A stretch of 64,000 bases of DNA from Octopus vulgaris (lineage: Eukaryota), in NCBI GenBank assembly GCA_951406725.2, contig OX597816.1, forward strand, positions 65,844,001 to 65,908,000. Reading direction: 5' to 3'. The notes under the pieces were generated by a model. It had not been told where the DNA came from. It made no database searches and saw only the letters and a program-made list of their open reading frames with translations. The translations under genes and the position numbers were made by a program. Shown piece after piece: positions 5,111-56,138 of the stretch. Positions within the stretch are counted from its first letter, which is position 1, and the number at the start of each line of letters is the position of its first letter.

Positions 5111-5231
5111 TTTAGTATTGTACCAGATTTGTTAAAAACAAATCAATATTACATTTGATAAATTATTAGTTTAGTTCATGTTTTTTACAGATCAATTCTC
5201 ACCTCCTTTTTTTTTTAATTATTTTTTCCAG

Positions 5232-5439
5232 ACAAATGCAAGATGAATTTGATAGCTACCAACAAGCAGTAAAAAAATTAAGTGAGGAAACCAAACAAGT
5301 AACTCCACAAGATGAAGGTGCTGTCTGTCAAATCTGCCATAAAACAAAATTTGCTGATGGTGTTGGGCATAGTTGTCACTACTGTCACCTGAAATCATGT
5401 GCCAGATGTGGTGGCAGAATTACAATGCGTGGGAATAAG
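5232..5439 (+). CDS. RIMS: RIM/RIMS (unc-10-like) internal coding exon: end of Rab-binding helix plus first part of the zinc finger
   Basis: Acceptor ttttttccAG at 5230-5231, donor AAG|GTattt at 5440. Translates QMQDEFDSYQQAVKKLSEETKQ...CQICHKTKFADGVGHSCHYCHLKSCARCGGRITMRGNK, closely matching the vertebrate RIM motif CGICHKTKFADGCGHxCSYCxTKFCARCGGRVSLRSNK. Starts in phase 2, ends in phase 0. Confidence 0.95.
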
Positions 5440-6050
5440 GTATTTGAAATATTAATGAACATTCTTCTTTATATTTACAAAACGTATTTCTCTTTTAATG
5501 AAAGTTTGAATTTACCCAATATTGTTATATGATAAAATATGCCAGGTTAAATATTTTATAGTTTTTAGTTTGAATCTTCTCAATACATTTCTTGTATGGT
5601 ATATTATTGGTATATAACTCTTTGGAGCTAACTTTGTATTTGCCTAACTTTTAATCCTGCTAATTATCATTGTACACTCTTTAACATCATTTTCTCTCAT
5701 CCAATATATCCAACTGTGACATTGTTGGTTCCACTGTTTTCATTTGCTTGAATATCAATCCCGATATCTTAGACACTAGGAAGTTCAAACTTTGTTTTAT
5801 CAATAGTTACAAAATTGAAAAACAAATTTTTGTTTTTTGAAGTGAGGTATTTGTTTAATAAACAACAATCCAACTATATTCGATGTGCCATGTGCTGAGC
5901 TAGTTATAAGTTATGTGACATATACAATAAACTGAGAAAGGTCGTGTACCTTTCTTCTTTTTATGAAATGAAAACTGAAATACAATATAGATACATAGCT
6001 ACATAACAATATAGTTCATGTCAAATTTGGTGGCTCTGATACAAAATATA

Positions 6051-6265
6051 TTCTTTTCTACTCTAGGCACAAAGCCTGAAATTTTGGGGGAGAGGACTAG
6101 TCGATTAGATCGACCCCAGTATGCAACTGGTACTTAATTAATGGACCTCGAATGGGTGAAAGGCAAAGACAACCTCAGCAAAATTTGAACTCAGAATGTA
6201 AAGACAGACGAAATACTGCTAAGCATTTCACCCGGTGTGCTAATGTTTCTGCCAGCTCGCCACCT
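6051..6265 (-). mobile_element. tRNA-derived SINE family B (alternative-tail subfamily)
   Basis: Head ggtggcgagctggcagaaac, B box gagttcaaatt; TSD tctg(a/t)tacaaaatata at 6035-6050 and 6266-6281. Confidence 0.8.
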
Positions 6266-6864
6266 TCTGTTACAAAATATACTAAAGAAAAAAACTGAAC
6301 GAATATGCAGAGAAAATGTTCTGTTTTCAGTCATTAACATTTTGGTTAATATTGGCTTAAAAAAAATTTCTGATTATGTAATCAAATACAAAGTGATGCA
6401 CATCAAACATTGAACCTGGCATTGCAATTAATTATCTGCAGACATTTGCCAATTCTTTTGAAGACATAATTAGCTCTGAGATTAGCACATCTGAAAGGTG
6501 GAATTATTTTCTACATGATAACCTTTAAGAATGGTATGAAATTAGCATAGATTTCACCTCTACCAGTTATCAGTAGTGAACTGCCTTGTCCAATGTTTGG
6601 TATAATCTTCAGAAGCTTTTAATGTCATACTCTTGTGCAACTTTTTTTTCTGAATAAAACTAATAGTATTTGGGAACTTTCAAGAGATAAATAACTACTA
6701 ACTGCACCAGATCAGGGTTTGTCTTTGGCTAAGCTCAAATTACCACATATTTTACAATTGTCTCTGCAGTTGTTGGTGATGCCACATCATTAAAGCTGAT
6801 AAAGCTGATCATAATCCAGCCCTGATTAAGGACTGAACCTACGATTGTATGTAGGACCACATTG

Positions 6865-7130
6865 TTTGGCACGTAAAATGTGCAGGTGGCACGTAAAAAA
6901 ACACCATTTGAGCATGGCTGTTGCCAGTACCGCCTGACTGGCCCTCATGCTGGTGGCACATAAAAGCACTCACTACACTCTTGGAGTGGTTGGCATTAAG
7001 AAGGGCATCCAGCTGTAGAAACTCTACCAGATCAAGACTGGAGTCTGATGCAGCCATCTGGTTCACCAGTCCTCAGTCAAATCATCCAACCCATGCTCGC
7101 ATGGAAAGCGGGTGTTAAACGATGATGATA
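6865..7130 (+). mobile_element. Family C (RTE-like 3'UTR) copy
   Basis: ggcacgtaaaa...gaagggcatccagctgtagaaactct...ttaaacgatgatga terminus. Confidence 0.8.
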
Positions 7131-8242
7131 CAGTTTGATTTGAGAGAAAATTGTTTATAAATCCCAAAGCATGCATTCATTATAAACACACTCAGTTATA
7201 TCCTAAATAATATTGTATATCTGATAGAGAAACTTTTCAAATACCAATACAATGTCCTCTGTTCCCCTAATTTACCAACTTTATGCCTTTTTATTTTATT
7301 TAACTATTGTTGGTCCATTGCTGGATGAAATCTCAGTATGCCATTGCTGATTTATCTATGCTAGTTTTATAGCTCCTTGTCTACACTGGCCTCTTGCATT
7401 TTGGACTGGGTGTTCTTGTTGTTAGGTGTTTAACCTTAATCTTCTGCACATATGTGGAACTTGAAATCAGAATGGAGAGATCTGCAAATAAACATTTCTA
7501 AGTTTCTTGTTCAACACTAATAATTCTATCAGTCCAATGTCCTGAAAAGTACTTTATTTGTCAGTTCTTAAAGGATGAGAGGCAAAATTGACCTCAATAA
7601 TATTTGAACTCAGAGTGCAGGGAGCTAAAATGAATTCTGCAAAGCATTCTATCTGATGCTGTAATGACTCTATCAACTCACCACCTAACTCGTTGCTATT
7701 GACAACAAAATTCACTTAATCAAACCAATGATGGAAACTGTTGGTGGTTACTTGACCTGCTAAAAATAGCAGTAAATCTCTTTCAAGTCATGCATAACAG
7801 TCTTGAAATAAAAAAAAATACATATTGAATAACACAGTTCTGTTGGCACCATGTCTGATAACACGTGGGTTGAGTATAGCTGCCTCTAATCATGAGTCTG
7901 CTTGGTCAAGACTAACTTGAGACTAATCAGCAACAAATCCACTCAATATGTTTTTATTTCCTATTTTTTCTATTATCACCTGCCAGACCTTGTACTGAAC
8001 AATCTTCCTAACAATTTTTGCAGAAATGAATTTGCTTTATAATTCTTTACCTGCACATATTTTCTTCAAACATTAATTTTCAACAAATCCTGTTGAACAT
8101 TAATCACATTAATCTCATTCATGTTCTTTTATTCACAAATTTAAAACTTAAATGTAAGTGAAACAAGTCCTCCTCTTCAGACAATAAAATGAGGAAATAA
8201 AATAATATTGTTCTCTAGTCTTCATTTATTAATATGCTGAGA

Positions 8243-8503
8243 TGGGTTGTGTTCTTGAACAAGACACTCTATTTCACATTGCTCTAGTTCGCTCAGCTCT
8301 AGAAATGTGTTGCAGTGTCACAGGTGCCAAGCAATATCAGCCTTTGCCCCTCCCTTGGATAACATTGGTGTCATGGAGAGGGAAAGCTGGTATTTATGAG
8401 TGACTGCTGGTCTTCCATAAACAACCTTACCCAGACTTGTGCCTCGAGGCGTAACTTTCTAGGTGCAATCCCATGGTCATTCATGATCGATGGGGGGGTC
8501 TTT
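8243..8503 (+). mobile_element. SINE family E (5'-truncated)
   Basis: Matches the 3' three quarters of 33587-33925. Confidence 0.8.
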
Positions 8504-8510
8504 TACTCGT

Positions 8511-8537
<27 letters not shown>

Positions 8538-8541
<4 letters not shown>

Positions 8542-8818
8542 GTAAATGTAATATGTGACAATTATTCAGTAGCCATGATAAAACTCGGAGTTTTGGATGC
8601 CGAGGTGGAAATCCACGCCGCCATCTCTTCAGTTATCCGGCCATCGGAAAAAATGGTATGAAAGAGATGGCAGCGTGGATTTCCACCTCGGCATCCGAAA
8701 CTCGGAGTTTTATCATGGCTACCGAATAATTGTCACATATTACCTTTACAGATAAATTCCTCTATTTACATAATATCAAGGTCGCTTTCATTCTTTTGTT
8801 GTCTTACCATTTTTATCA

Positions 8819-8820
<2 letters not shown>
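8538..8820. mobile_element. Fold-back insertion in (TA)n carrying two damaged copies of the 31.4 kb hammerhead element
   Basis: 8538-8629 is inverted relative to about 8662-8753. 8662-8820 is the reverse complement of about 31299-31446. (TA)n on both sides. Confidence 0.8.
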
Positions 8821-8859
<39 letters not shown>

Positions 8860-8987
8860 TATATATTTTCAGACTCTCTTATATGAGTGAATGATGTTAT
8901 TTTTCCCAACTGAATTTATTTTTCTCTTTTTAAGCTTATCTTCTTATTTTCATCACTCCTTTATCTTTTTCTCATTCATCCTGTCAG

Positions 8988-9041
8988 CCTGTACCTGTGA
9001 GTGGCAAGGAAGTCAAAGATCTCAGTGGTCAAAACGTCACT
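8988..9041 (+). CDS. RIMS: Candidate alternative cassette exon of RIM inside the zinc finger (54 nt, PVPVSGKEVKDLSGQNVT; 9-nt PVP form if the inner donor is used)
   Basis: About 50-nt AG-free pyrimidine tract ending ctgtcAG (8986-8987). GTAAGT donor at 9042 and a second GTGAGT donor at 8997. Both forms are phase 0-0 and stop-free, matching the phase-0 intron. Confidence 0.65.
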
Positions 9042-10810
9042 GTAAGTTTTATGGTCAAATGTAATGGATTAGATGTAGTCTTGCACTTTATTGTTGTCTG
9101 CTTTGAGCTTGTTTTATAAACTGTATTTCTCAAATTGAGCCCTAATACTTTTCTGTTATTTAAAAAATGGAATTTTTTTTATTATTATAAAATCTGTCTT
9201 GTCAGAAGCATGCAAGCATGGAAAATTAGACATTAAAACTATTCAAATAAAAAAAAAAAAAAGAATAATAACATGATCCTAAATTGTCTGAATTCTTAAT
9301 TTTCTGTCACATTGTATCAGACCTAACCATATCTTGTGACCGACCATTAAGGATTATTGAAGAACCTCCTTTGTGGCATTTTGTATTCTAATGGTTATTA
9401 GCATTGTGGCAAGTAGATTTAGGAACAGTTAATGCATGACAAGATACAAACTCACAACCCATCAGCTAAGTGACTGATTCAGTCAGCTGATGCACCTTAT
9501 TCAATGCACCTTGTTCAAACCACTTCATTTCAATCACTGGTTTGATGATAATCAAGTAAGAGATTGTATCTTTGGAGAATAAAAACCAAAAGTACTATGG
9601 TTGATATTTCTTCACTTTAAAGTGTTTTTGATTATTATGTTTGGGTTGATATTTTTTTATTTATTTTGTTATGATTAAGTTATAAGAAAATTCAATTTGG
9701 CTGTTTAAATAATGCTTTTATTGTAAATTTGCACTGCGGCTATCTTTGAAATGGTATTTCAGTTACATGCATTGACACATTTTAAAAGAGACATCAGTTG
9801 ACCAATTCTGTTTTTGGTTTCTTCATAGTCCACACTTGGGCTAAATTTTCTTTTCTTTTTGGTGCTTTAATAAACTGTTGACATTACCTTTCTAAGCAGC
9901 TTAGTAGAGACTTACTAAATAAATCTTGAGATATTTTCTAGCTTGTTGATGCCCTTTTTTTAATTACTCAATTTTTTAAAAAAATTTGTTTAATATCTAA
10001 TATTTTCATGTAGTTAACTAATCTCAGTAATAACCCAATTAGTCATGTTCAATTTCACTTGATTAAGAATTTGAAATGTCATTTCAAAGATATCTCAACA
10101 GACAAAAACAAAAAGTGACATATTAAAAACTGTTTCTTATTTTGATTTTCCAGTTTTTAAATTGAAATGGTTTTTATCATAATTATAATAAAGTCAGTGT
10201 AATTTAGTGGAAAAAAATTCTGTGAAGCACATGGCATGAATTAAATGAATAAACAGCCGACTGGGATCATGTGACTGTTTATAGATTATCAGAAACTAAC
10301 ACACTATCAATTTACATTATTATTATTTGTCATGTTTATAGAGATATTTGCAAATATATTTTATGGAATAGTTCCAAATAAAGATTGTTAAATAGCAGTA
10401 TTTTCTCATAAGGAAGAAAGGAACATATTTATAGTGAACAAGTTCAGTGTAATTACAGTTCGCTTAAATATTTTTATAGCATTATATAAAGTTTTAACTG
10501 ATTCTGGGGCAGTGGAGGATAACATTGACCAGTCATTTATCCAAGCCTATATTGGCTGGTTCTTTCATACTTTTAGACTTAATCACAATATCCTTTTAAA
10601 TTCTGAGAATAAAAAAAAAATCCAAGTTTTGCCCTCGGCAACTAAAGCCTGGAAAGAAACTTAATATCATTACCAAGAATGTGGCAAAGGTGAATGTAAA
10701 AGCTCAGTCTATGGGAGCTTGACAATGCTAATAATAAGAATAATGGTTTCTGTTATTAGCCAGTATGGTGAGAGTAATATATTAAAATGTCATCGATATG
10801 ATTTCATCTT

Positions 10811-11150
10811 ACACTTTACACTTTTACTTGTTTCAGTCATTTGACTGTGGCCATACTGGAGCACTGCCTTTAGTCGAGCAAATCAACCCCAGGACTTATT
10901 ATTTGTAAGCCTAGTACTTATTCTATCGGTCTCTTTTGCCGAACCACTAAGTTACGATGACGTTAACACGTTGGGGGGGGGGCACAAACATATACACACA
11001 CATGCATATATACATATATATACGATGGGCTTCTTTCAGTTTCCGTCGACCAAATCCACTCTCAAAGCTTTGGGTGGCCTGAGGCTATAATAGAATACAC
11101 TTGCCCAAGGTGGTTGGTAAGCAAGCTACTTACCACACAGCCACTCCTAC
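10811..11150 (-). mobile_element. SINE family A (internally deleted)
   Basis: Matches 3573-3960. Confidence 0.85.
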
Positions 11151-11349
11151 ACCTATATAAAAATATTTGGATTAAATACTCTCCTAAATACTAATCACTG
11201 TTTTTAAAATAGTAGTAGCAATTATTAAATGAAGTAAAATGAGTTAGATATTGTTTTGGTGTATTACATTCCACTAAAACATGTCTTTATACTTTTCCCA
11301 AGTTTTCTTGTCTGAAGTTCGTCACTCCAGGTGTCAGCGGTTATGTAGA

Positions 11350-12370
11350 AATCTATATCAGAATGTCTTAAAAGCAGAGCCTTTGTTGACCATATTTGTA
11401 TTTAAGGTACCTTTTGACAACTGCATAATCTATTCAGTAGCATGCCCTGCTAATGAACAGATAATGAATAAGCTGATGACTTAGTTCTTATGGCTGAATT
11501 TGTGGTACGTTTAGTGAAGGAATCTGATGTAGAATCAAAGACTAGAACTGAGAGGCTTCGAAGTAAACTTAGCAAAGACTAAAGTATTAGCAAACAGGAA
11601 AGGAAGCAAGACCTTGCTCCCATCAAGGAAATGGTTCTGCTCAATATATAGTAAAATGTTTATATAAGAATTCCTTGTAGTGTAGTGGCGGACTTTCAGA
11701 GAAAGTAAACTTCATGTGCAGTCAGTGCACAAGGGCCATTAGCACTTGAAGCTCACAGAAAGTTGATTCTCTCAAAGGTATAAAAGGGATTTTTTCAGTA
11801 GTTTATAGCTTTTGTTAACTAGGAAACCTAATTAATAGTGGGGGTTAGTGTTCAATAATACCTTGAATATGAACAGGCTGGAGAAAGTTCAAGGAGCTCT
11901 TAGTTATGTTGGTAACAAAACCATTTTGTCTTGGAACAAAGGGCAAATAAAATGAGACTTTTGATACTGCAAATCTTCAAGTGAGATGTAGGCCTTGAAT
12001 GCAAAGGATTTGTGAAAACTAGAAATAAATGAACTGACCATGCTCTTTTGGATGTGTAATGTTTGTGTGTGGGAATAATGAATTACAAAAACTGAATGTT
12101 TGATAAATCAGATTTTGTGTGTCAGAGAGAAGACTGTTGTCATCAGTATGTGGTGTGTTATGGAGAAGGATAGCTGATCAAGAAGTATTGTATGTTCAAA
12201 GTGAATGAGATTTGTGGAAAAGAAAGACCAGGGAAGACTTGGGACAAACTGAAGAAGACTGATCTAAAGATGCTGCATCTCAGATGAAGATAATGAAAGA
12301 CTATGTCAATTGACAGCAGAGTGCATGAGAAGATCTGTCCATGCATGCAAGCTAAGTGAAATGAGCGTTA
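11350..12370 (+). mobile_element. Old degenerate RTE-like LINE fragment
   Basis: ADDLVLMAE (RT YADD region), VNLAKTKVL and RPGKTWDK remnants with many stops and frameshifts. Confidence 0.6.
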
Positions 12371-13809
12371 AAATTGATAGTAATGGAGAATGGGGGACAT
12401 AACATAAATATTTACTGTCAAGTCTACATCTGCTGCCTCACCAGCCTCTTTGACTTTCTCTCACTTTTCTATCACTCTCTATTTTGCTTATTTTCTATAT
12501 AATCTATTAGTGAAAATAAAGAAAGCAATGATCTCTCCTGTCTGACCTTCTCACCTCTCTAACCCCACTCTTTTTTCCATGCACTGTCCCTTGACCTGTG
12601 TAATAATGATGGATGGTACTGGACCTATGCATATTTCAATCCCCACCTCAATCATCCTTTCTCAGGATTTTTTGAAGAGGATGCACAGTGGGAGGGTGGG
12701 ACACCATTAGAATGTATATTTAACTGAGTGTACTGGAAGTTGTGGAATGTAGTGCTTTCCTTAAGGGCGCTAGGCATTGTCCAGTCTAAGAATTAAAACC
12801 ATGATGTAACAGTCCACACCACTACACTACACACCTTCACTTACACACACACACACAAACACATACATCATACATATATACATTACATACATACATACAA
12901 ACAGGCTCCTCTATAGGGATGAAACATCCAATTTTTCACTGCTGTAAATTTTGAATTCAAAAGGTTGGGCTTCCAACCAGGCCTTTTGTGATACCCCTTA
13001 AAGCCTGCAACTTTTCAGCACCCTCTCATATGTCTATGACCCAATCTGCCTCTATAAAGCCAATCTGCCTCTATAAAACCTTCCCCCACCTGTCACCTTC
13101 TCTCTATTTTCTAACAAGAGTACTATTCAGCTTTCATTTCCTTTTGTGCTACTGCTTATCTTTGTCTTTGGAATCACTTCCTTTTGTCACCCATCTCACA
13201 TTTTCAGCATCATTCTCCCCTATATTATTCTTCACTTTAACATTAGATAACAAGTGGCACAGAATTTTTGTGCCCCTGTTATCTCTCCCATTCCCCTGAA
13301 CTATATCATATAATTGTTATTCCTCATCCTTGACACCCTCTCATATCTACCATGACAGCCCTCCATACCATTGTTCATCAGTATGCATGAATGCATACTG
13401 ACATTGCACATCCAAAATGTTACTCTTAGCAACATGTAGCATATAGAAATAAAGTCATTCTGGTTTGGTATTTGCCATTGCTGTGGTCCAGTCAGATGTG
13501 CTCCAAGACTGCCACTCTGTCCACACGTGCTAGTGATCATTCAATTATATTATTTATTTCAGCATAGCAAGAGCATCTCCCTTCATTGAACTAGCATAAT
13601 AGCACATGATATTCTCTCAGATTGATCTTTTGATCACACTTATACTTTAACAGTTGAAGCATACTCAAGCCCACATGAAGTGCCATACCAATTTAGAAGG
13701 CACTGTTGTTAATGAATAATTAATTAGCAATAGAAGTTATGAGGTTTATATGTAGAAAAATATGTAAGACATCTCCAGTTAACCATTCATCAGACATAGA
13801 ACTAAAATA

Positions 13810-13976
<167 letters not shown>

Positions 13977-14880
13977 CATATATGGGTACAGGATGTCGCC
14001 AACAGTAAATAACGTGAAATACGAAAACAAATGAGTTAAATGCACAAACAACAAGAGAAAAAATGGAAGACAGGACAAGTAACACAAAGAACAACAATAT
14101 GAGTCTTTGAAGACAGTTGCTCCCATAAATACCAAAATAAAATTTGGATTTACAGAGGGTCAAAGTTGGGAACAAAAGTAGGACGGTGGAGACATACAAT
14201 GAAACTGAATAAAAACAAACATGGAGAGTCATTAGACCAAAATAAGAGTAAAATAGAAATCGCTGGAGAAATATTTTCTTTGCAAAGAGAAAAGATAGAT
14301 GAGAGAGATAGATGTCCAGTCATTTGGACGTTCTGGAGGAAAAGAAAGATGGTCACGTGAGGAAAAGAAAAGTGGACGATAGTCACATGTGAGCAAATTT
14401 AAAGGGATTTGTTGTGCAAGAAGGTACAAAGTAAACTACAAAAGAAAAAGAAAGAAAACAAAGTAAAGTTTGAGTTTTACCTTGTATTTCAATATTTTGA
14501 AGTTATAACCCTTTCTTCAGGACATTTCTAAAAAGTGAAGGATGGAAATATCATTGCTCAGATGTGTTAAGAAGAAAGGAGGAAGGAAGAAGGTGACATG
14601 TGCAGACTGGTGTTGCTATAGTAACCAGTCAGCTTTATGTAGTTCCTTCCAGTTGTTAATGGCTGGTCTCAATTTGTTGATAAGGAGGGCTTCCATGATT
14701 CTGAGATTGTTCCTGTTACATTGAGTGACCCTGATGGATACCTTAAAATCCTGGATCTGGCACTTCTTTAGTTGTTCATCTATTGACATGCTAATGTGCT
14801 CTTTTATTTGAATGTGCATTTTTCTGATAGTACTCCCTATATAAGATGCCCTAGTTTTATTGCAGACTACTTTATATACC

Positions 14881-15109
14881 TATTTCTTTATTACCCACAA
14901 GGGGCTAAACACAGAGGGGACAAACTAGGACAGACATAGGTATTAAGTCGATTACATCGACCCCAGTGCGTAACTGGTACTTAATTTATCGACCCCGAAA
15001 GGATGAAAGGCAAAGTCGACCTCGGCGGAATTTGAACTCACAACGTAACGCAAACGAAATACCGCTAAGCATTTCACCCGGCGTGCTAACGTTTCTGCCA
15101 GCTCGCCGC
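14881..15109 (-). mobile_element. SINE family B
   Basis: TSD CTTTATATACC at 14870-14880 and 15110-15120. Confidence 0.9.
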
Positions 15110-15197
15110 CTTTATATACCACATAGGCCCTCAAGTATGTTTTGACTTTATTGATGAGAAATTGGACGGGACACACACACACATACACGTTTCTCAT

Positions 15198-15664
15198 TTC
15201 TTTATTGCCCACAAGGGGCTAAACATAGAGGGAACAAACAAGGACAGACAAACGGATTAAGTCGATTACATCGACCCAGTGCCTAACCGGTACTTAATTT
15301 ATCAAGGCAGCGAGCTGGCAGAAACGTTAGCACACCGGGAGAAATGCTTAGTGGTATTTCATCTGTCGCTACTTTCTGAGTTCAACTTCCACCGAGGTTG
15401 ACTTTGCCTTTCATCCTTTCGGAGTCGATAAATTAAGTACCAGTTACGCACTGGGGTCGATGTAATCGATTTAATCCATTTGTCTGTCCTTGTTTGTCCC
15501 CTCTGTGTTTAGCCCCTTGTGGGTAGTAAAGAAATAGGTACTTAATTTATCGACCCCTAAAGGGATGAAAGGCAAAGTCAACCTCAGCAGAATTTGAACT
15601 CAGAACGAAATACCACTAAGCATTTCGCCCAGTGTGCTAACATTTCTGCCAGTTTGCCGCCTTA
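15198..15664 (-). mobile_element. SINE family B with a second family B copy nested antisense (15304-15536)
   Basis: Outer TSD ACACATACACGTTTCTCAT (15179-15197, 15665-15683); inner TSD GGTACTTAATTTATC (15289-15303, 15537-15551). Confidence 0.9.
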
Positions 15665-16720
15665 ACACATACACGTTTCTCATCTGGTTGAAACAACTAT
15701 CAATTTTATTTCTTACACAAATACATGTTCATATGTTCATCACCTGTTTGTGTTTCTCTACTATCTCACTGAGCTTACATTTCATTGTACTAACATTGAC
15801 TGTAACAGCACTGAAAAGAAAACACAAAAACACATTCCTGATTGATTTGGGGATGGCTGGTTAAGGAGTGAGTGTTCATAATGTTACTGTATGCAGTACT
15901 AAGTAAATAGATGTACATTACTATTAATGTAGTTAGTGTTATACAATTTAGTATTCTGCATATTTGATTTAGCTGTTGTTTTACACTAGATATCCTTTTT
16001 TATCATTGACCATTAGGAAAGTGTACTGGGTATATTTAGAATACTAGCACTAGAATGGTTGTTACACAAAGAAAGGATTACATCCTATATTGATTTTTCT
16101 AAACAGATTACCTTCACTGTAGCATAAGGCATCCTGTTTCTCCTCTATTGTTGTTAGGGAAGTTTCCCTGAACACTCTCATGGGTAACTATATAGATACA
16201 AGTATAAATTATTTATCAAATCAATATCTCTCTCTCTGAGTGATATTGAAAAGTTAAGCCAATCTTGTAATCTTATACATTTATCCATAAAAACCTAAGG
16301 ACAATATCCTTGATATTAATGAATAAAAAGAAGTCATATGATTAGTGATTAGTCTGCTGGTGTTGTTGCAATTTTTATATAATAACAAAATGAAGTAATA
16401 ATTTAAGTAATTAAATTAAAGGGATATATACTGAGTACCATGTAATATGTATTCTTAATATTTTGATATTTCACAGTTGGAGAATGGAAAAAATAGTTTA
16501 CTAGTAATTGCTAACAATTCACACAAAAAAGGGAAGATGATTTGAACAAATTAAGAATTAATTACTCAAGTTATTTTATATACTTAGGGAACAAACATTC
16601 TGACTTTTGTTTGTAGGCAAGAGACAATAATGGCCGTGTATTTTTGCTCTATTTGACCTTCTCAGCATAAAACAGTTTATGCAGACCTTAGCTCATTCAT
16701 TTATATCTAAAAATGTTCAT

Positions 16721-17094
16721 GCATGGCTGTGTGGTAAGAAGCTTGCTTTCCAACCACATGGTTCCAGGTTCAGTCCCACTGCATGGCACCTCGGGCAAGT
16801 GTTGTCTAATTATAGCCTTGGGCCAACCAAAGCCTTATGAGTTGAAACTGAAAGAAGCCTGTTATATATACATGTGTGTGTTTGTGTCTATGTTTATCCC
16901 CTACCACCACTTGACAACTGATCTTGGTGTGTTTACATCCCCTTAACTTAGCAGTTCAGCAAAAGATATCAATAGAATAAGTGCCAGGCTTTAAAAAAAT
17001 GCATTGCGGTCAATTCATTCAACTTAAAATCCTTCAAGGCAGTGCCCCAGCAAGGGCTGCTGTTTAATGACTGAGACAAGTGAAAGGTAAAAGA
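16721..17094 (+). mobile_element. SINE family A (older subfamily)
   Basis: tggctgtgtggtaag...ggttcagtccc...gactgagacaagtgaaagg. Confidence 0.8.
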
Positions 17095-17884
17095 TATCTC
17101 TTTGCTTGTAAAGAAAGATCAGATTTCCCTTCCTTTTCCTTTCCCCTTCTTTTCCCTCTTAATTTCTTAAAATTATCCACCCCTTTCTTTTAAAATTGCT
17201 AACAACTAATGCTATATCTTTTTTTTCATTCTCCAACTTGGAATGAAATTTCAATAAATTTAGATTTTATTGCATACAGCATTCACTACAACAATCTTCA
17301 ACTTAATTAACCAAATTCATCAAGTGGCCCTTTTGAATTATTAATCTTTTAAGTGTTTTTCACTGAAGAAATTCATTCAAACTGGTGAGGTTTTACTCGT
17401 AGATTAATTCTACTGCACAACAGGTCTTGGTTTCATCAGTAGCATAACTCTTACTCTGTCTTCCTCGCCTACTATTACTCCATTCCTCACTAACACACAG
17501 ATAGTTGTACACCTACATATGGATACATGACTGACTGTCATTTGCATCAAGTGGCCAGTTTGCTTTTGTTCACTTGCTATTATCACAGCTTTGATTTTTG
17601 GCTCAGACTGAAATATTCTTTATTGACTGATGACCTTGTTATTTGAATGGAACAGAGAATTGGCTAAATCACATGACTGTTCTTGTAGTTATTTTCAGCC
17701 AATCAGGCTGTTTACTTTTGGCATGTTCTTTTTTCAGCGACTTGATTTTGGAGCCCAGCTTATTAATATAAAGAACCATTTTTGATCAAGAAATTAGATT
17801 CAGTCATTTGCAAGGAGACCCTGCACACTTTGACATAAATAGTTTTTGTACATGCACTCATAGGCTCATCTCAAAAATATAACA

Positions 17885-18453
17885 TTTTACTCTATTCTCT
17901 TATATGTTTCAGTCCAATGACTGTGGCCATGCTGGAGCACCGCCTTTAGTCAAGCAAATCGACCCCAGGACTTATTCCTTGGATGCCTAGTACTTATGCT
18001 ATTGGTCCCTTTTGCTGAACTGCTAGGTTATGGGGACGTAAACACACTAGCATCGGTTGTCAAGCGATGTGGGGGGGACAAACACAGACACACTAACATA
18101 TACACACACATACATATATATAAAAAGCACCCACTACACTCACGGAGTGGTTGGCATTAGGAAGGACATCCAGCTGTAAAAACACTGCCAGATCAGACTG
18201 AAGCCTGGTGCAGCCTCCTCACTTCCCAGACCCCGATCGAACCGTCCAACCCATGGAAAACGGATATTAAACGATGATGATGATATACGTATATACAATG
18301 GGCTTCTTTCAGTTTCCATCTACCAAATCCACTCACAAGACTTTGGTCAACCCGAGGCTATAGTAGAAGACACTTGCCCAAGGTGCCATGGAGTGGGACT
18401 GAACCCACAACCATGTGGTTCGTAAGCAAGCTACTTACCACACAGCCACTCCT
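17885..18453 (-). mobile_element. SINE family A with a family C 3' end nested antisense at 18121-18284
   Basis: Family A halves flank a (GAT)n-tailed insert placed in the internal TA tract. Confidence 0.85.
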
Positions 18454-18489
18454 AGTAAGCAATAATTGATTACAAATTATTTAATCAAA

Positions 18490-18679
18490 TATTAATAGTT
18501 ATCGCCAAGCTAATATGGCAGTCCATAAATATAGGACAAAAGCTGCCGTTGATTTGCTCCAAGAGGCCATCACCTCTAGCTAATCAACGGCAGCTTTCAT
18601 CCTATATTTATGAACTGCTATATTAGTTTGGCGATAACTAGTAATATCTAGTACCAGAGACTTAGAAATAATATTTCTA
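18490..18679. mobile_element. Palindromic insertion (about 70-bp arms) with 12-bp flanking direct repeat
   Basis: 18489-18558 pairs with 18578-18647. TATTTAATCAAA occurs at 18478-18489 and 18680-18691. Confidence 0.65.
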
Positions 18680-19802
18680 TATTTAATCAAAATCATGGTT
18701 GAATTAATAAGCTGCAAATGCTCTATCTTTCAGGCAGTTACATTCTGTCAACACTCTTTACTCCACAACACTTGGTGAACAAAACATCAAGTAGATGATT
18801 TATAATAAATAGTATTTTTGTAAATACAATCCATACTAGTTCTGCATGTATTTATACTTGTACACTGAATGCTTACTATTGTCTTTAATTGTGCAACGTT
18901 CTTCACTGCTATTATTATACATTATACACTGGGTTTAACATATTTCTATTAATGTGATTACTCAATTTCATTTTTTTTAACCTATATGCTTATGCTTTAC
19001 GCATAACAAAATGTAAAATTATGTATCTGATTTTTTTTTTAAGGTTTTAAATGTTAGTTGCTTATATTAAATATTTGCTGATCACTTACATGATTAGTAA
19101 AATGTTTTGAAATATCAGACAATTTCAGTCACTTCTATGAATTATCTATATGATCTTTTCAGCTACAAGACTTAAATGCATGATATTATGTAAAGTTCAT
19201 AAATAGATCCAGTTCTATAGTAACCTTACGTAGTAATTTTCATTTTCAATATTATATCAAAGTAAAATGTCTGCTAAATTTATTTATGGAAACTATTTTC
19301 AGCTTTACATTCTTTCTATAATTAAAATATCATAGATCAAATATTTAATGGTGTCATAAAATTAATTAATAATGTTTAAATTTCCTTTAATTTCAAAACT
19401 TCAAACTACATTTGTATTTATGTTGAATTATCTCACAGTAGGCATCATGATGTTTTTCAAAACCATAAAAATCCAATCTGATGTAATTGTTGAGGATTTA
19501 ATTCTTAATGACAGAATATACAATTTATCTACTGCTATTATTTAGCATAGATGTATATTTTTAGCTCACAGTTGTTTTTTTTCTTTCTTTTTTCTTTTTT
19601 TTTTAAATATTTATGTGATTCTTTTCTATATAGAAATATAATGTCATACGATGTTGAAACTGTGATGACATTTGGTTGTAATTGATGAGGGTTTGAGCAT
19701 GTCCATATTCATTGTATATTTTTTTCCTGCTTTTCTGTATACTTCTTTGTTGTTCCTTTGTGCCACATTTCTGTTATAATATCTTAATATTTTTATTAAC
19801 AG

Positions 19803-20530
19803 GTAATATGGTCATGCAATTTATGTCGTAAAAAGCAAGAGATTTTAGCAAAAACTGGGGCTTGGTATCATGGCGGTATGGCACGACCTGTTGCTCTTGA
19901 TGTCGGTGATACCGCTTCTGGTAGTGAAACAGCTTCTACAAAAACAGATGTCAGCCCACCGAATGAAAAGAAAGCAAAGATTTTAGCAAAACAACAAACT
20001 GACAATGGGGCTAGTTCTGAAAAAGAAAATATTGATAAAAAGTCTGTTTCTCGATCAGGGAGTTTACAAAACCGTGGTTTAAAGCGTCAGTATTCATTGT
20101 CTGAAGTCCAAGGAAATAAGCAAAATGATTTGAAAGATCGACCAACAGATAATACCAGTGGAACTATTGTATCTGAGAAAGAAAAACTTCGAGAAAAAGG
20201 TCAGTTGCAAGACCGTGGCAGAGATGTAGAACGTGGACCATCTGCTCGAGGAAGCAATGTTGAAGGCTCAAAACATCATGATGGAAAAGTACATTCAAGA
20301 GAGGAATCTGCCAGGCGTTATGATAAGCGTTCAGACAGAGATAAATCACACGAAAAAGATGAAAGGATTAGGGAGAAACATCAAGGACGTTTCAGGGAAG
20401 GTTCTACTGATAGATTTAATGATGAAAAACGTGTAGATCATTCTGGACGAGAAACTGGAGATCATTACCATGAAAGAGATCAACGAAAACCTAGGGATTC
20501 ATCTCGAGAACCATCGAGAGATAGATTAAA
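19803..20530 (+). CDS. RIMS: RIM/RIMS internal coding exon: end of zinc finger, GAWY Rab3-binding motif, long charged linker
   Basis: Acceptor ttttattaacAG (19801-19802). Reads VIWSCNLCRKKQEILAKTGAWYHGG (compare RIM VMWVCNLCRKQQEILTKSGAWF) and runs into ORF 19878-20534. Donor AA|GTAAGT at 20531 (phase 2). In frame with exon 5232-5439. Confidence 0.95.
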
Positions 20531-34385: not shown

Positions 34386-34779
34386 ACTCTTTTACTCTTT
34401 TACTCTTTTACTTGTTTCAGTCATTTGACTGTGGCCATGCTGGAGCACCACCTTTAATCGAGCAACTCGACCCTGGGACTTATTCTTTTGTAAGCCCAGT
34501 ACTTATTCTATCGGTCTCTTTTGCCGAACCACTAAGTAATGGCGACATAAACACACCAGCATCGGTTGTCAAGCAATGCTAGGGGAACAGACACACAAAC
34601 ACACACACACGCATATATATATATGATGGGCTTCTTTCAGTTTCCATCTACCAAATCCACTCACAAGGCTTTGGTCGGCCCGAGGCTATAGTAGAAGACA
34701 CTTGCCCAAGGTGCCACGCAGTGGGACTGAACCCGGAACCATGTGGTTGGTAAACAAGCTACTTACCACACAGCCACTC
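34385..34779 (-). mobile_element. SINE family A
   Basis: Full-length copy with (ACTCTTTT)n tail. Confidence 0.85.
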
Positions 34780-55485: not shown

Positions 55486-55640
55486 TAGAGTCACTATATA
55501 AGTGACTCTTTTACATAGTTTTCAAATTCTTGTAAGGTACTGGTTAACTTGAGGCTATAATTGAAGACATTTACCCAAGGTTTTGTGCTGTGGAATCAAA
55601 CTCAGATCTACATGACCACAAAGCAAACTTCTTAATTACA

Positions 55641-56138
55641 GGTCAGCCTGTAATGATATGCATAAGATCTGGTCATCAAATCTAAGTAGAGATTTCAAAC
55701 TTAAAATCTTCAAAGCCACAGTCGAACCAATTCTACTATATGGCTCGGAAACCTGGACATTATCAAAGAAGCTTGAGAGGTGGTTGGATGGAACTTACAC
55801 TCGCCTCCTTATGAGGGCTCAAAATCTCTCGTGGAAGCGTCATTCAACAAAAGTACAAATATATGGGAAACTACCATCTGTATCATCTCTTGTGAAAGGT
55901 AGAAGAGTCCAGTTTGCTGGACATTGTCATAGAGCTGAAAACGATGTAATTTCTACTCTTCTCCTCTAGAAGCCATCTGCTTGCGATACCGAGGGCGCAC
56001 ACTCTCCTACCCTGATGTAATCTCCAGTGATACAGGTATCCAGCAACAGGACCTCCGTAATGCTATGATGGACCGTGAAGTCTGGCGTAACATAGTAAGT
56101 TCCATTGTCTCGACCACGGTCGATCAATGAATGAAATG
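55641..56138 (+). mobile_element. 5'-truncated RTE-like LINE (C-terminal ORF fragment)
   Basis: KLKIFKATVEPILLYGSETWTL...RRVQFAGHCHR is typical of the region after RT in RTE-like LINEs. Short (AATG)-type tail; AATTACA TSD at 55634-55640 and 56139-56145; inserted in an old SINE head. Confidence 0.85.

Follow-up and report, generated by a model that had tools for sequence, protein, structure and literature searches.

Evidence for a mostly included 54-nucleotide cassette exon within the zinc finger of Octopus vulgaris RIM

The contact between RIM and Munc13 sets synaptic vesicle priming. In the Munc13-1/RIM2 crystal structure, the Munc13 C2A domain is bound by N-terminal loops (K97, K99 and R118), and hairpin 3/4 together with helix a2 opens a crevice that holds the helix following C2A, whose conservation in invertebrates is doubted in that 2006 paper (PMC1472246). 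The structure 2cjs was solved with an insert-free RIM2 finger, and inserts are found in most cephalopod records, in many from other molluscs and in some of fish RIM2. Alternative splicing of the N-terminal Rab3/Munc13 module has a precedent in rat RIM1, whose N83-W105 exon reportedly affects Rab3A binding, a result attributed to Fukuda in 2004. This exon likewise lies within the module, but at a different position from the one described here, upstream of the zinc-finger cysteines (10.64898/2026.10.23.761409).

A related case is the vertebrate RIM1/RIM2 insert EDKV, which follows the loop Lys/Asn at the same junction and in the same phase as the octopus exon, but comprises 4 aa (12 nt) compared to 18 aa in octopus. 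A 12-nt mouse Rims2 exon, MmuEX0039865, the most 5′ of five listed, is eMIC-sensitive (PMC8797185); its length and 5′ position make it likely that it encodes EDKV, a string absent from the papers listed in one literature search. At a broader scale, recurrent neural exons are reported to be common, with different exons affecting the same protein region in orthologous synaptic genes across bilaterians (bioRxiv 10.64898/2026.09.05.749416). Octopus RIM resembles the Type I cases of that study in its region-level recurrence; it differs in that the main text does not name RIM, that any neural specificity of the octopus exon is conjectural, and that shared ancestry is possible. The annotated cephalopod RIM isoforms contain the same exon, the same 18 residues (with 2 changes in Argonauta) and the same skip alternative, but no 3-aa form in 20 proteins; these models carry no functional description.

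We analysed a 64,000-nt stretch of the Octopus vulgaris genome, referred to here as the window, whose RIM exons match the O. vulgaris model CAI9719396.1, the downstream 728-nt exon at 100%. The identity of the protein is supported by the domains PF02318, PF00595 and PF00168 and by a match to 2a20/2cjs at E 2e-15; it shows the eight-Cys FYVE-like finger, flanking helices and (S/T)GAW motif of a RIM N-terminal zinc finger within a PDZ-C2-C2 protein. The relevant features are as follows.

5232-5439, forward strand: upstream RIM exon, encoding the end of helix a1 and the zinc finger to ...CARCGGRITMRGNK, with the phase-0 donor AAG/GTATTT; placed by tblastn to the O. vulgaris model.
8910-8987, forward strand: acceptor region, with a branch-point-like CTGAATT at 8910, a 51-nt AG-free pyrimidine tract and four YCAY words.
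8988-9041, forward strand: 54-nt cassette exon encoding PVPVSGKEVKDLSGQNVT, with the donor ACT/GTAAGT; seen in run contigs and cephalopod proteins.
8997-9002, forward strand: internal donor-like GTGAGT within Val-Ser codons, predicting a 9-nt PVP exon from sequence only.
9208-9438, forward strand: three GCATG words downstream of the exon, one of them TGCATG at 9433, in a predicted Rbfox-type enhancer position.
19803-20530, forward strand: downstream RIM exon of 728 nt, encoding VIWSC, the last CxxC, helix a2, the TGAWYH motif and linker, and ending in phase 2.

RGNK closes the upstream exon at 5439, VIWSC opens the downstream one at 19803, and the 54-nt exon lies between them in a phase-0 intron of 14.4 kb (5440-19802). 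Its acceptor (cag/8988) is preceded by a 51-nt AG-free zone that is 83% pyrimidine, and is followed by two in-frame donors, CCT/GTGAGT after 8996 and ACT/GTAAGT after 9041; reading through to the proximal donor yields PVP, and to the distal donor PVPVSGKEVKDLSGQNVT. On recheck, the initial annotation was correct in every one of these statements about the pyrimidine tract, acceptor, donor hexamers, intron phase and frames. Of the three strong acceptors on the forward strand of the intron, a donor-like site lies within 150 nt of 8988 only; this acceptor is also followed by two of the intron's four GTRAGT hexamers, an arrangement that exceeds chance. The branch-point-like element and the YCAY words may have a functional role, as judged from their position and composition. 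A search of the 14.4-kb intron returned no other cassette candidate. Beyond the downstream exon, the last 43 kb of the window (20531-64000) contain no further RIM exon and belong to a very long intron, in which one weak 69-nt in-frame cassette candidate was seen at 34421-34489. The same region holds a 117-aa stop-free frame (55616-55969, forward strand), which resembles a C-terminal fragment of a LINE reverse transcriptase.

Use of the exon was examined in contigs from sequencing runs that are probably RNA. Four runs were compared over the stretch 5150-9600, out of 24 listed (14 of them guessed to be RNA), representing at most four studies, with the RNA type guessed and the tissue not recorded. 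In all four, the main RIM contig carries a joint at 5437>8986, which is equivalent to 5439>8988 with GT..AG ends when the cut is moved by +2, at depths of 122, 15, 17 and 15; the junction proposed initially is thus present in 4/4 runs. The short side of the joint has 60 aligned letters, made up of 2 ambiguous bases, 54 exon bases and 4 trailing bases (GTAA) that are common to the exon donor and the start of the downstream exon. Contigs begin at 5232 in three of the four runs, and arithmetic on the depth table shows that bin depths over both exons equal those of one contig covering 8986-9045. Acceptor 8988 and the donor at 9042 are therefore used; the joint 9041>19803, which lies outside the compared stretch, is deduced from protein records. 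Neither a skip contig nor a 9-nt contig was seen in the four runs over 5150-9600, bearing in mind that contigs drop rare forms. Within the same intron, high-copy repeats at 6044-6341, 6789-7235 and 8130-8874 are heavily represented in the RNA-type runs, and repeats dominate the loose-end entries; the differences in these three repeats include many A>G and T>C changes mixed with C>T and G>A, as could arise from paralogous copies or editing.

These data bear on the possibility that the exon is chance intronic sequence or a misplaced copy. The segment is a single copy in a genome-wide match, and records exist in four named octopod species as well as in cuttlefish-like transcripts. Such an artefact is refuted because spliced contigs carry the 5439>8988 joint, and we give it almost no weight. 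A search for a processed retrocopy of the spliced junction gave 0 matches.

To place the exon among annotated proteins, we considered 20 cephalopod proteins whose sequences cross the junction, drawn from the cluster members listed (15/29 and 15/19 of two clusters). The exon is included in 19 and skipped in 1, and none contains PVP alone; 18 of the 19 inclusion records carry PVPVSGKEVKDLSGQNVT, and the Argonauta hians record carries PVPVTGKDVKDLSGQNVT. The exon had been described as hidden, which is wrong: it is known to annotation, being already part of RefSeq/GenBank models of O. bimaculoides (XP_052821978.1), O. sinensis (XP_036356910.1), O. vulgaris (CAI9719396.1) and Argonauta hians (GAB1600238.1). 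The O. sinensis RIM models begin at MRGNK and lack most of the zinc finger, probably owing to an assembly or annotation gap. The literature searched gave no paper on the 54-nt exon or its function, and an earlier description in older subscription papers is possible.

Conservation in other cephalopods was borne out. The insert is 18/18 identical between octopus and four cuttlefish-like transcript proteins, whose overall identity is 99% to fragments from Sepia pharaonis and 89% to octopus. As the flanking exons are equally invariant (69/69 and 60/60), the insert looks like constrained coding sequence. In Argonauta the insert matches at 16/18 positions, compared to 69/69, 60/60 and 80/80 elsewhere, and is the sole place of change in the 227 N-terminal residues compared. 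The skip form is a single RefSeq model, O. bimaculoides XP_052821982.1, and is absent from the contigs of O. vulgaris in the four runs. Together, these records uphold the reading of a cassette within RIM's zinc finger, with the 18-aa form in 19/20 proteins and the skip form in one, and support a frame-preserving cassette that is mostly included and two-way rather than three-way; as skipping is represented by one model from a sister species, the exon may be nearly constitutive.

A three-way switch of 0, 3 or 18 residues had been suggested, in which a regulated 9-nt microexon (PVP) would exist beside the skip and 54-nt forms. The internal donor is in frame with a consensus hexamer, its U1 pairing ranks in the top 3% of 738 GT sites across the intron, Haliotis has three forms (0/15/29 aa) at the same junction, and 9-nt exons are easily missed by annotation and contigs. 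Low-level use of this donor is possible because its U1 pairing at least equals that of the used donor (duplex energies of -6.6 versus -5.4 kcal/mol). Against regulated use, the PVP-only form occurs in 0/20 cephalopod proteins, a count with low sensitivity for rare 9-nt forms, and no second contig appears in the four runs. Moreover, Argonauta has Val-Thr at the donor codons (VS>VT), which cannot encode GTRAGT, so that the donor is lost there; cuttlefish-like proteins keep Val-Ser at the protein level. With the local codon usage, estimated from a small sample, a Val-Ser pair would give an in-frame GTRAGT in about 9% of cases. Hence, of the dual-donor cassette, the acceptor and distal 54-nt donor are confirmed in use, and the proximal donor is found in none of the 20 proteins. 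We regard a three-way switch as improbable, and the internal GTGAGT most likely just reflects the Val-Ser codons that it spans, giving minor noise at most.

The flanking signals also differ from those of neural microexons, which, according to three studies, need UGC or GC near the acceptor when controlled by Srrm4/eMIC (PMC3464207, PMC4387716, PMC8797185). No GC dinucleotide occurs in the 50 nt upstream of the octopus acceptor, the nearest being at 8934, 54 nt upstream, and the used form of 54 nt exceeds the microexon length of at most about 27-30 nt; the long AG-free zone and pyrimidine tract that accompany such exons are present. The eMIC-sensitive mouse exon contrasts with an octopus exon that has no UGC signal, and the absence of a microexon enhancer further weakens the three-way proposal. 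Instead, four YCAY words and no (U)GC microexon signal lie upstream, and GCATG reaches 3 per 500 nt downstream compared to an intron mean of 0.59, a count attained in 11 of 278 overlapping scan windows, among which this cluster itself was not separated out. The YCAY and GCATG words are presumably candidate Nova- and Rbfox-type sites. Separately, the downstream exon starts cag/GTAATA, and cassette skipping rebuilds a donor, AAG/GTAATA, at 19800-19810, with a U1 duplex of -6.6 compared to -5.7 for the real upstream donor and -1.4 after cassette inclusion. Re-splicing at the rebuilt donor would remove the 728-nt, frame-shifting exon, and a recursive-splicing effect favouring cassette inclusion is possible.

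We then compared the junction across other animals. Pairs of proteins with and without an insert after the same loop lysine occur in 10 taxa: octopus, Haliotis, Argopecten, two oysters, Mytilus, Lineus, Acanthaster, Ptychodera and Synchiropus. Of the 15 Synchiropus RIM2 members listed, 8 read RSNK-EDKV-VMWVC and 7 have the short form; four other fish sets show the short form only among members listed, with a query that favoured the short form. RIM1-like proteins with RSNN-EDKV also exist, so that the EDKV insert named in the initial annotation is confirmed at exactly this junction in both RIM1-like and RIM2 proteins. The octopus exon matches EDKV in intron position and phase, and no sequence similarity was detected (shuffle p 0.87); short loops may lose such signal. 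Insert length varies between 4 and 29 aa, no motif is common to all, and the two oysters are the sole pair to align in 45 pairwise shuffling tests. A 'PVPV' similarity between octopus and oyster (p 0.025 in 1 of 45 tests) was rejected as homology, and an insect-like record with 36 extra residues was set aside as it looks like intron sequence. No comparable insert was present in the amphioxus and lepidopteran records seen, one amphioxus set having escaped the search pattern. Limpets, caenogastropods and heterobranchs have a loop that is 5-8 residues longer, and their records contain no shorter isoform as far as seen; judging by read-through records, the additional residues sit in the upstream exon through a donor shift rather than in a cassette.

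Among 118 unspliced or truncated homologues, grouped by sequence only, Val follows the loop residue in 88, as expected of read-through into a phase-0 GT, which indicates that the intron is old. Convergence with vertebrates, as first proposed, stands as one option; given nine other non-cephalopod taxa with optional inserts at this site, an old splice slot is as plausible, because optional, unalignable inserts follow the same lysine in many groups. The best explanation, which as a whole we consider reasonably probable, includes an old splice slot that different lineages filled with fast-diverging loop exons.

The structural setting suggests what such a loop might do. When the protein is aligned to 2a20/2cjs, the insert coincides with a break between chain residues 49 and 50, which by our own numbering from K97/K99/R118 corresponds to rat RIM2 K129 and V130. 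The insert thus lies at the tip of hairpin 3/4, the last beta-hairpin of the zinc finger, beside the Munc13-helix crevice, and adjoins one of the two Munc13-binding surfaces of the RIM finger. The eight Zn-binding cysteines and the equivalents of K97/K99/R118 are untouched, and the Rab3 contacts (helix a1 and the SGAWFY-like motif) are not interrupted. In a model built from 63 sequences, the finger has pLDDT 88-94, and the insert forms a loop of pLDDT 53-57 that joins the strands 105-111 and 131-137; a single-sequence fold was unusable (pLDDT 47). As for the partner, snail Unc-13 aligns to 2cjs through the post-C2A helix. The octopus unc-13 locus (C22 27.44-27.87 Mb, minus strand, about 430 kb) contains collinear C2A exons and a helix exon with AG/GT ends, the latter reaching only E 1.4 alone, and the partner surface is likely to exist in octopus. 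The insert may affect Munc13 binding, and the suggested tuning of the Munc13/Rab3-binding module would concern the secondary Munc13-helix site, which the insert borders, rather than the main Munc13 or Rab3 contacts.

With moderate confidence, we favour a mostly included, two-state 54-nt cassette with a loop that would modulate the secondary contact with Unc-13. Inclusion would add 18 residues at the hairpin tip, where a flexible Pro/Lys-rich loop could alter access to the Munc13-helix crevice or provide a short docking surface; the insert would likely adjust rather than abolish Unc-13/Munc13 binding, and the level of inclusion could shift priming strength between cell types. The main competitor, which we judge unlikely yet worth keeping in mind, is a functionally near-neutral filler: the exon would be included almost constitutively, in a surface turn where any insert is tolerated, and skipping would be splicing noise. 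Inclusion in 19/20 records, inserts of 4 to 29 aa without a common motif, the low model confidence of the insert, and the longer gastropod loops without a shorter isoform, apparently within the upstream exon, all suit such a filler, and the change in the Argonauta insert together with inserts unalignable between classes would fit a tolerant loop. This reading sits poorly, however, with an insert kept at 18/18 between octopus and cuttlefish-like proteins of 89% whole-protein identity, with both forms being kept in 10 taxa, and with the eMIC sensitivity reported for the 12-nt mouse Rims2 exon (PMC8797185).

On a wider and more tentative reading, which we consider doubtful, the RIM hairpin by the Munc13-helix crevice acts throughout the bilaterians as a splice rheostat of vesicle priming, built on one ancestral slot. 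This slot would hold EDKV in vertebrates and Pro/Lys-rich loops of 9-29 residues in molluscs, nemerteans and ambulacrarians; amphioxus and lepidopterans would have lost it, some snails would have fixed it within the upstream exon, and cell types would set RIM-Unc13 affinity through inclusion; that a rare PVP form in octopus adds a further step to this rheostat is more doubtful still. The remaining point of note is a cross-bilaterian splice slot beside a Munc13 contact. If the insert leaves affinity unchanged, the exon is one more annotated exon of the usual kind, placed in a loop that tolerates it. If the insert does change affinity, the exon would belong to a bilaterian-wide control of release by splicing.
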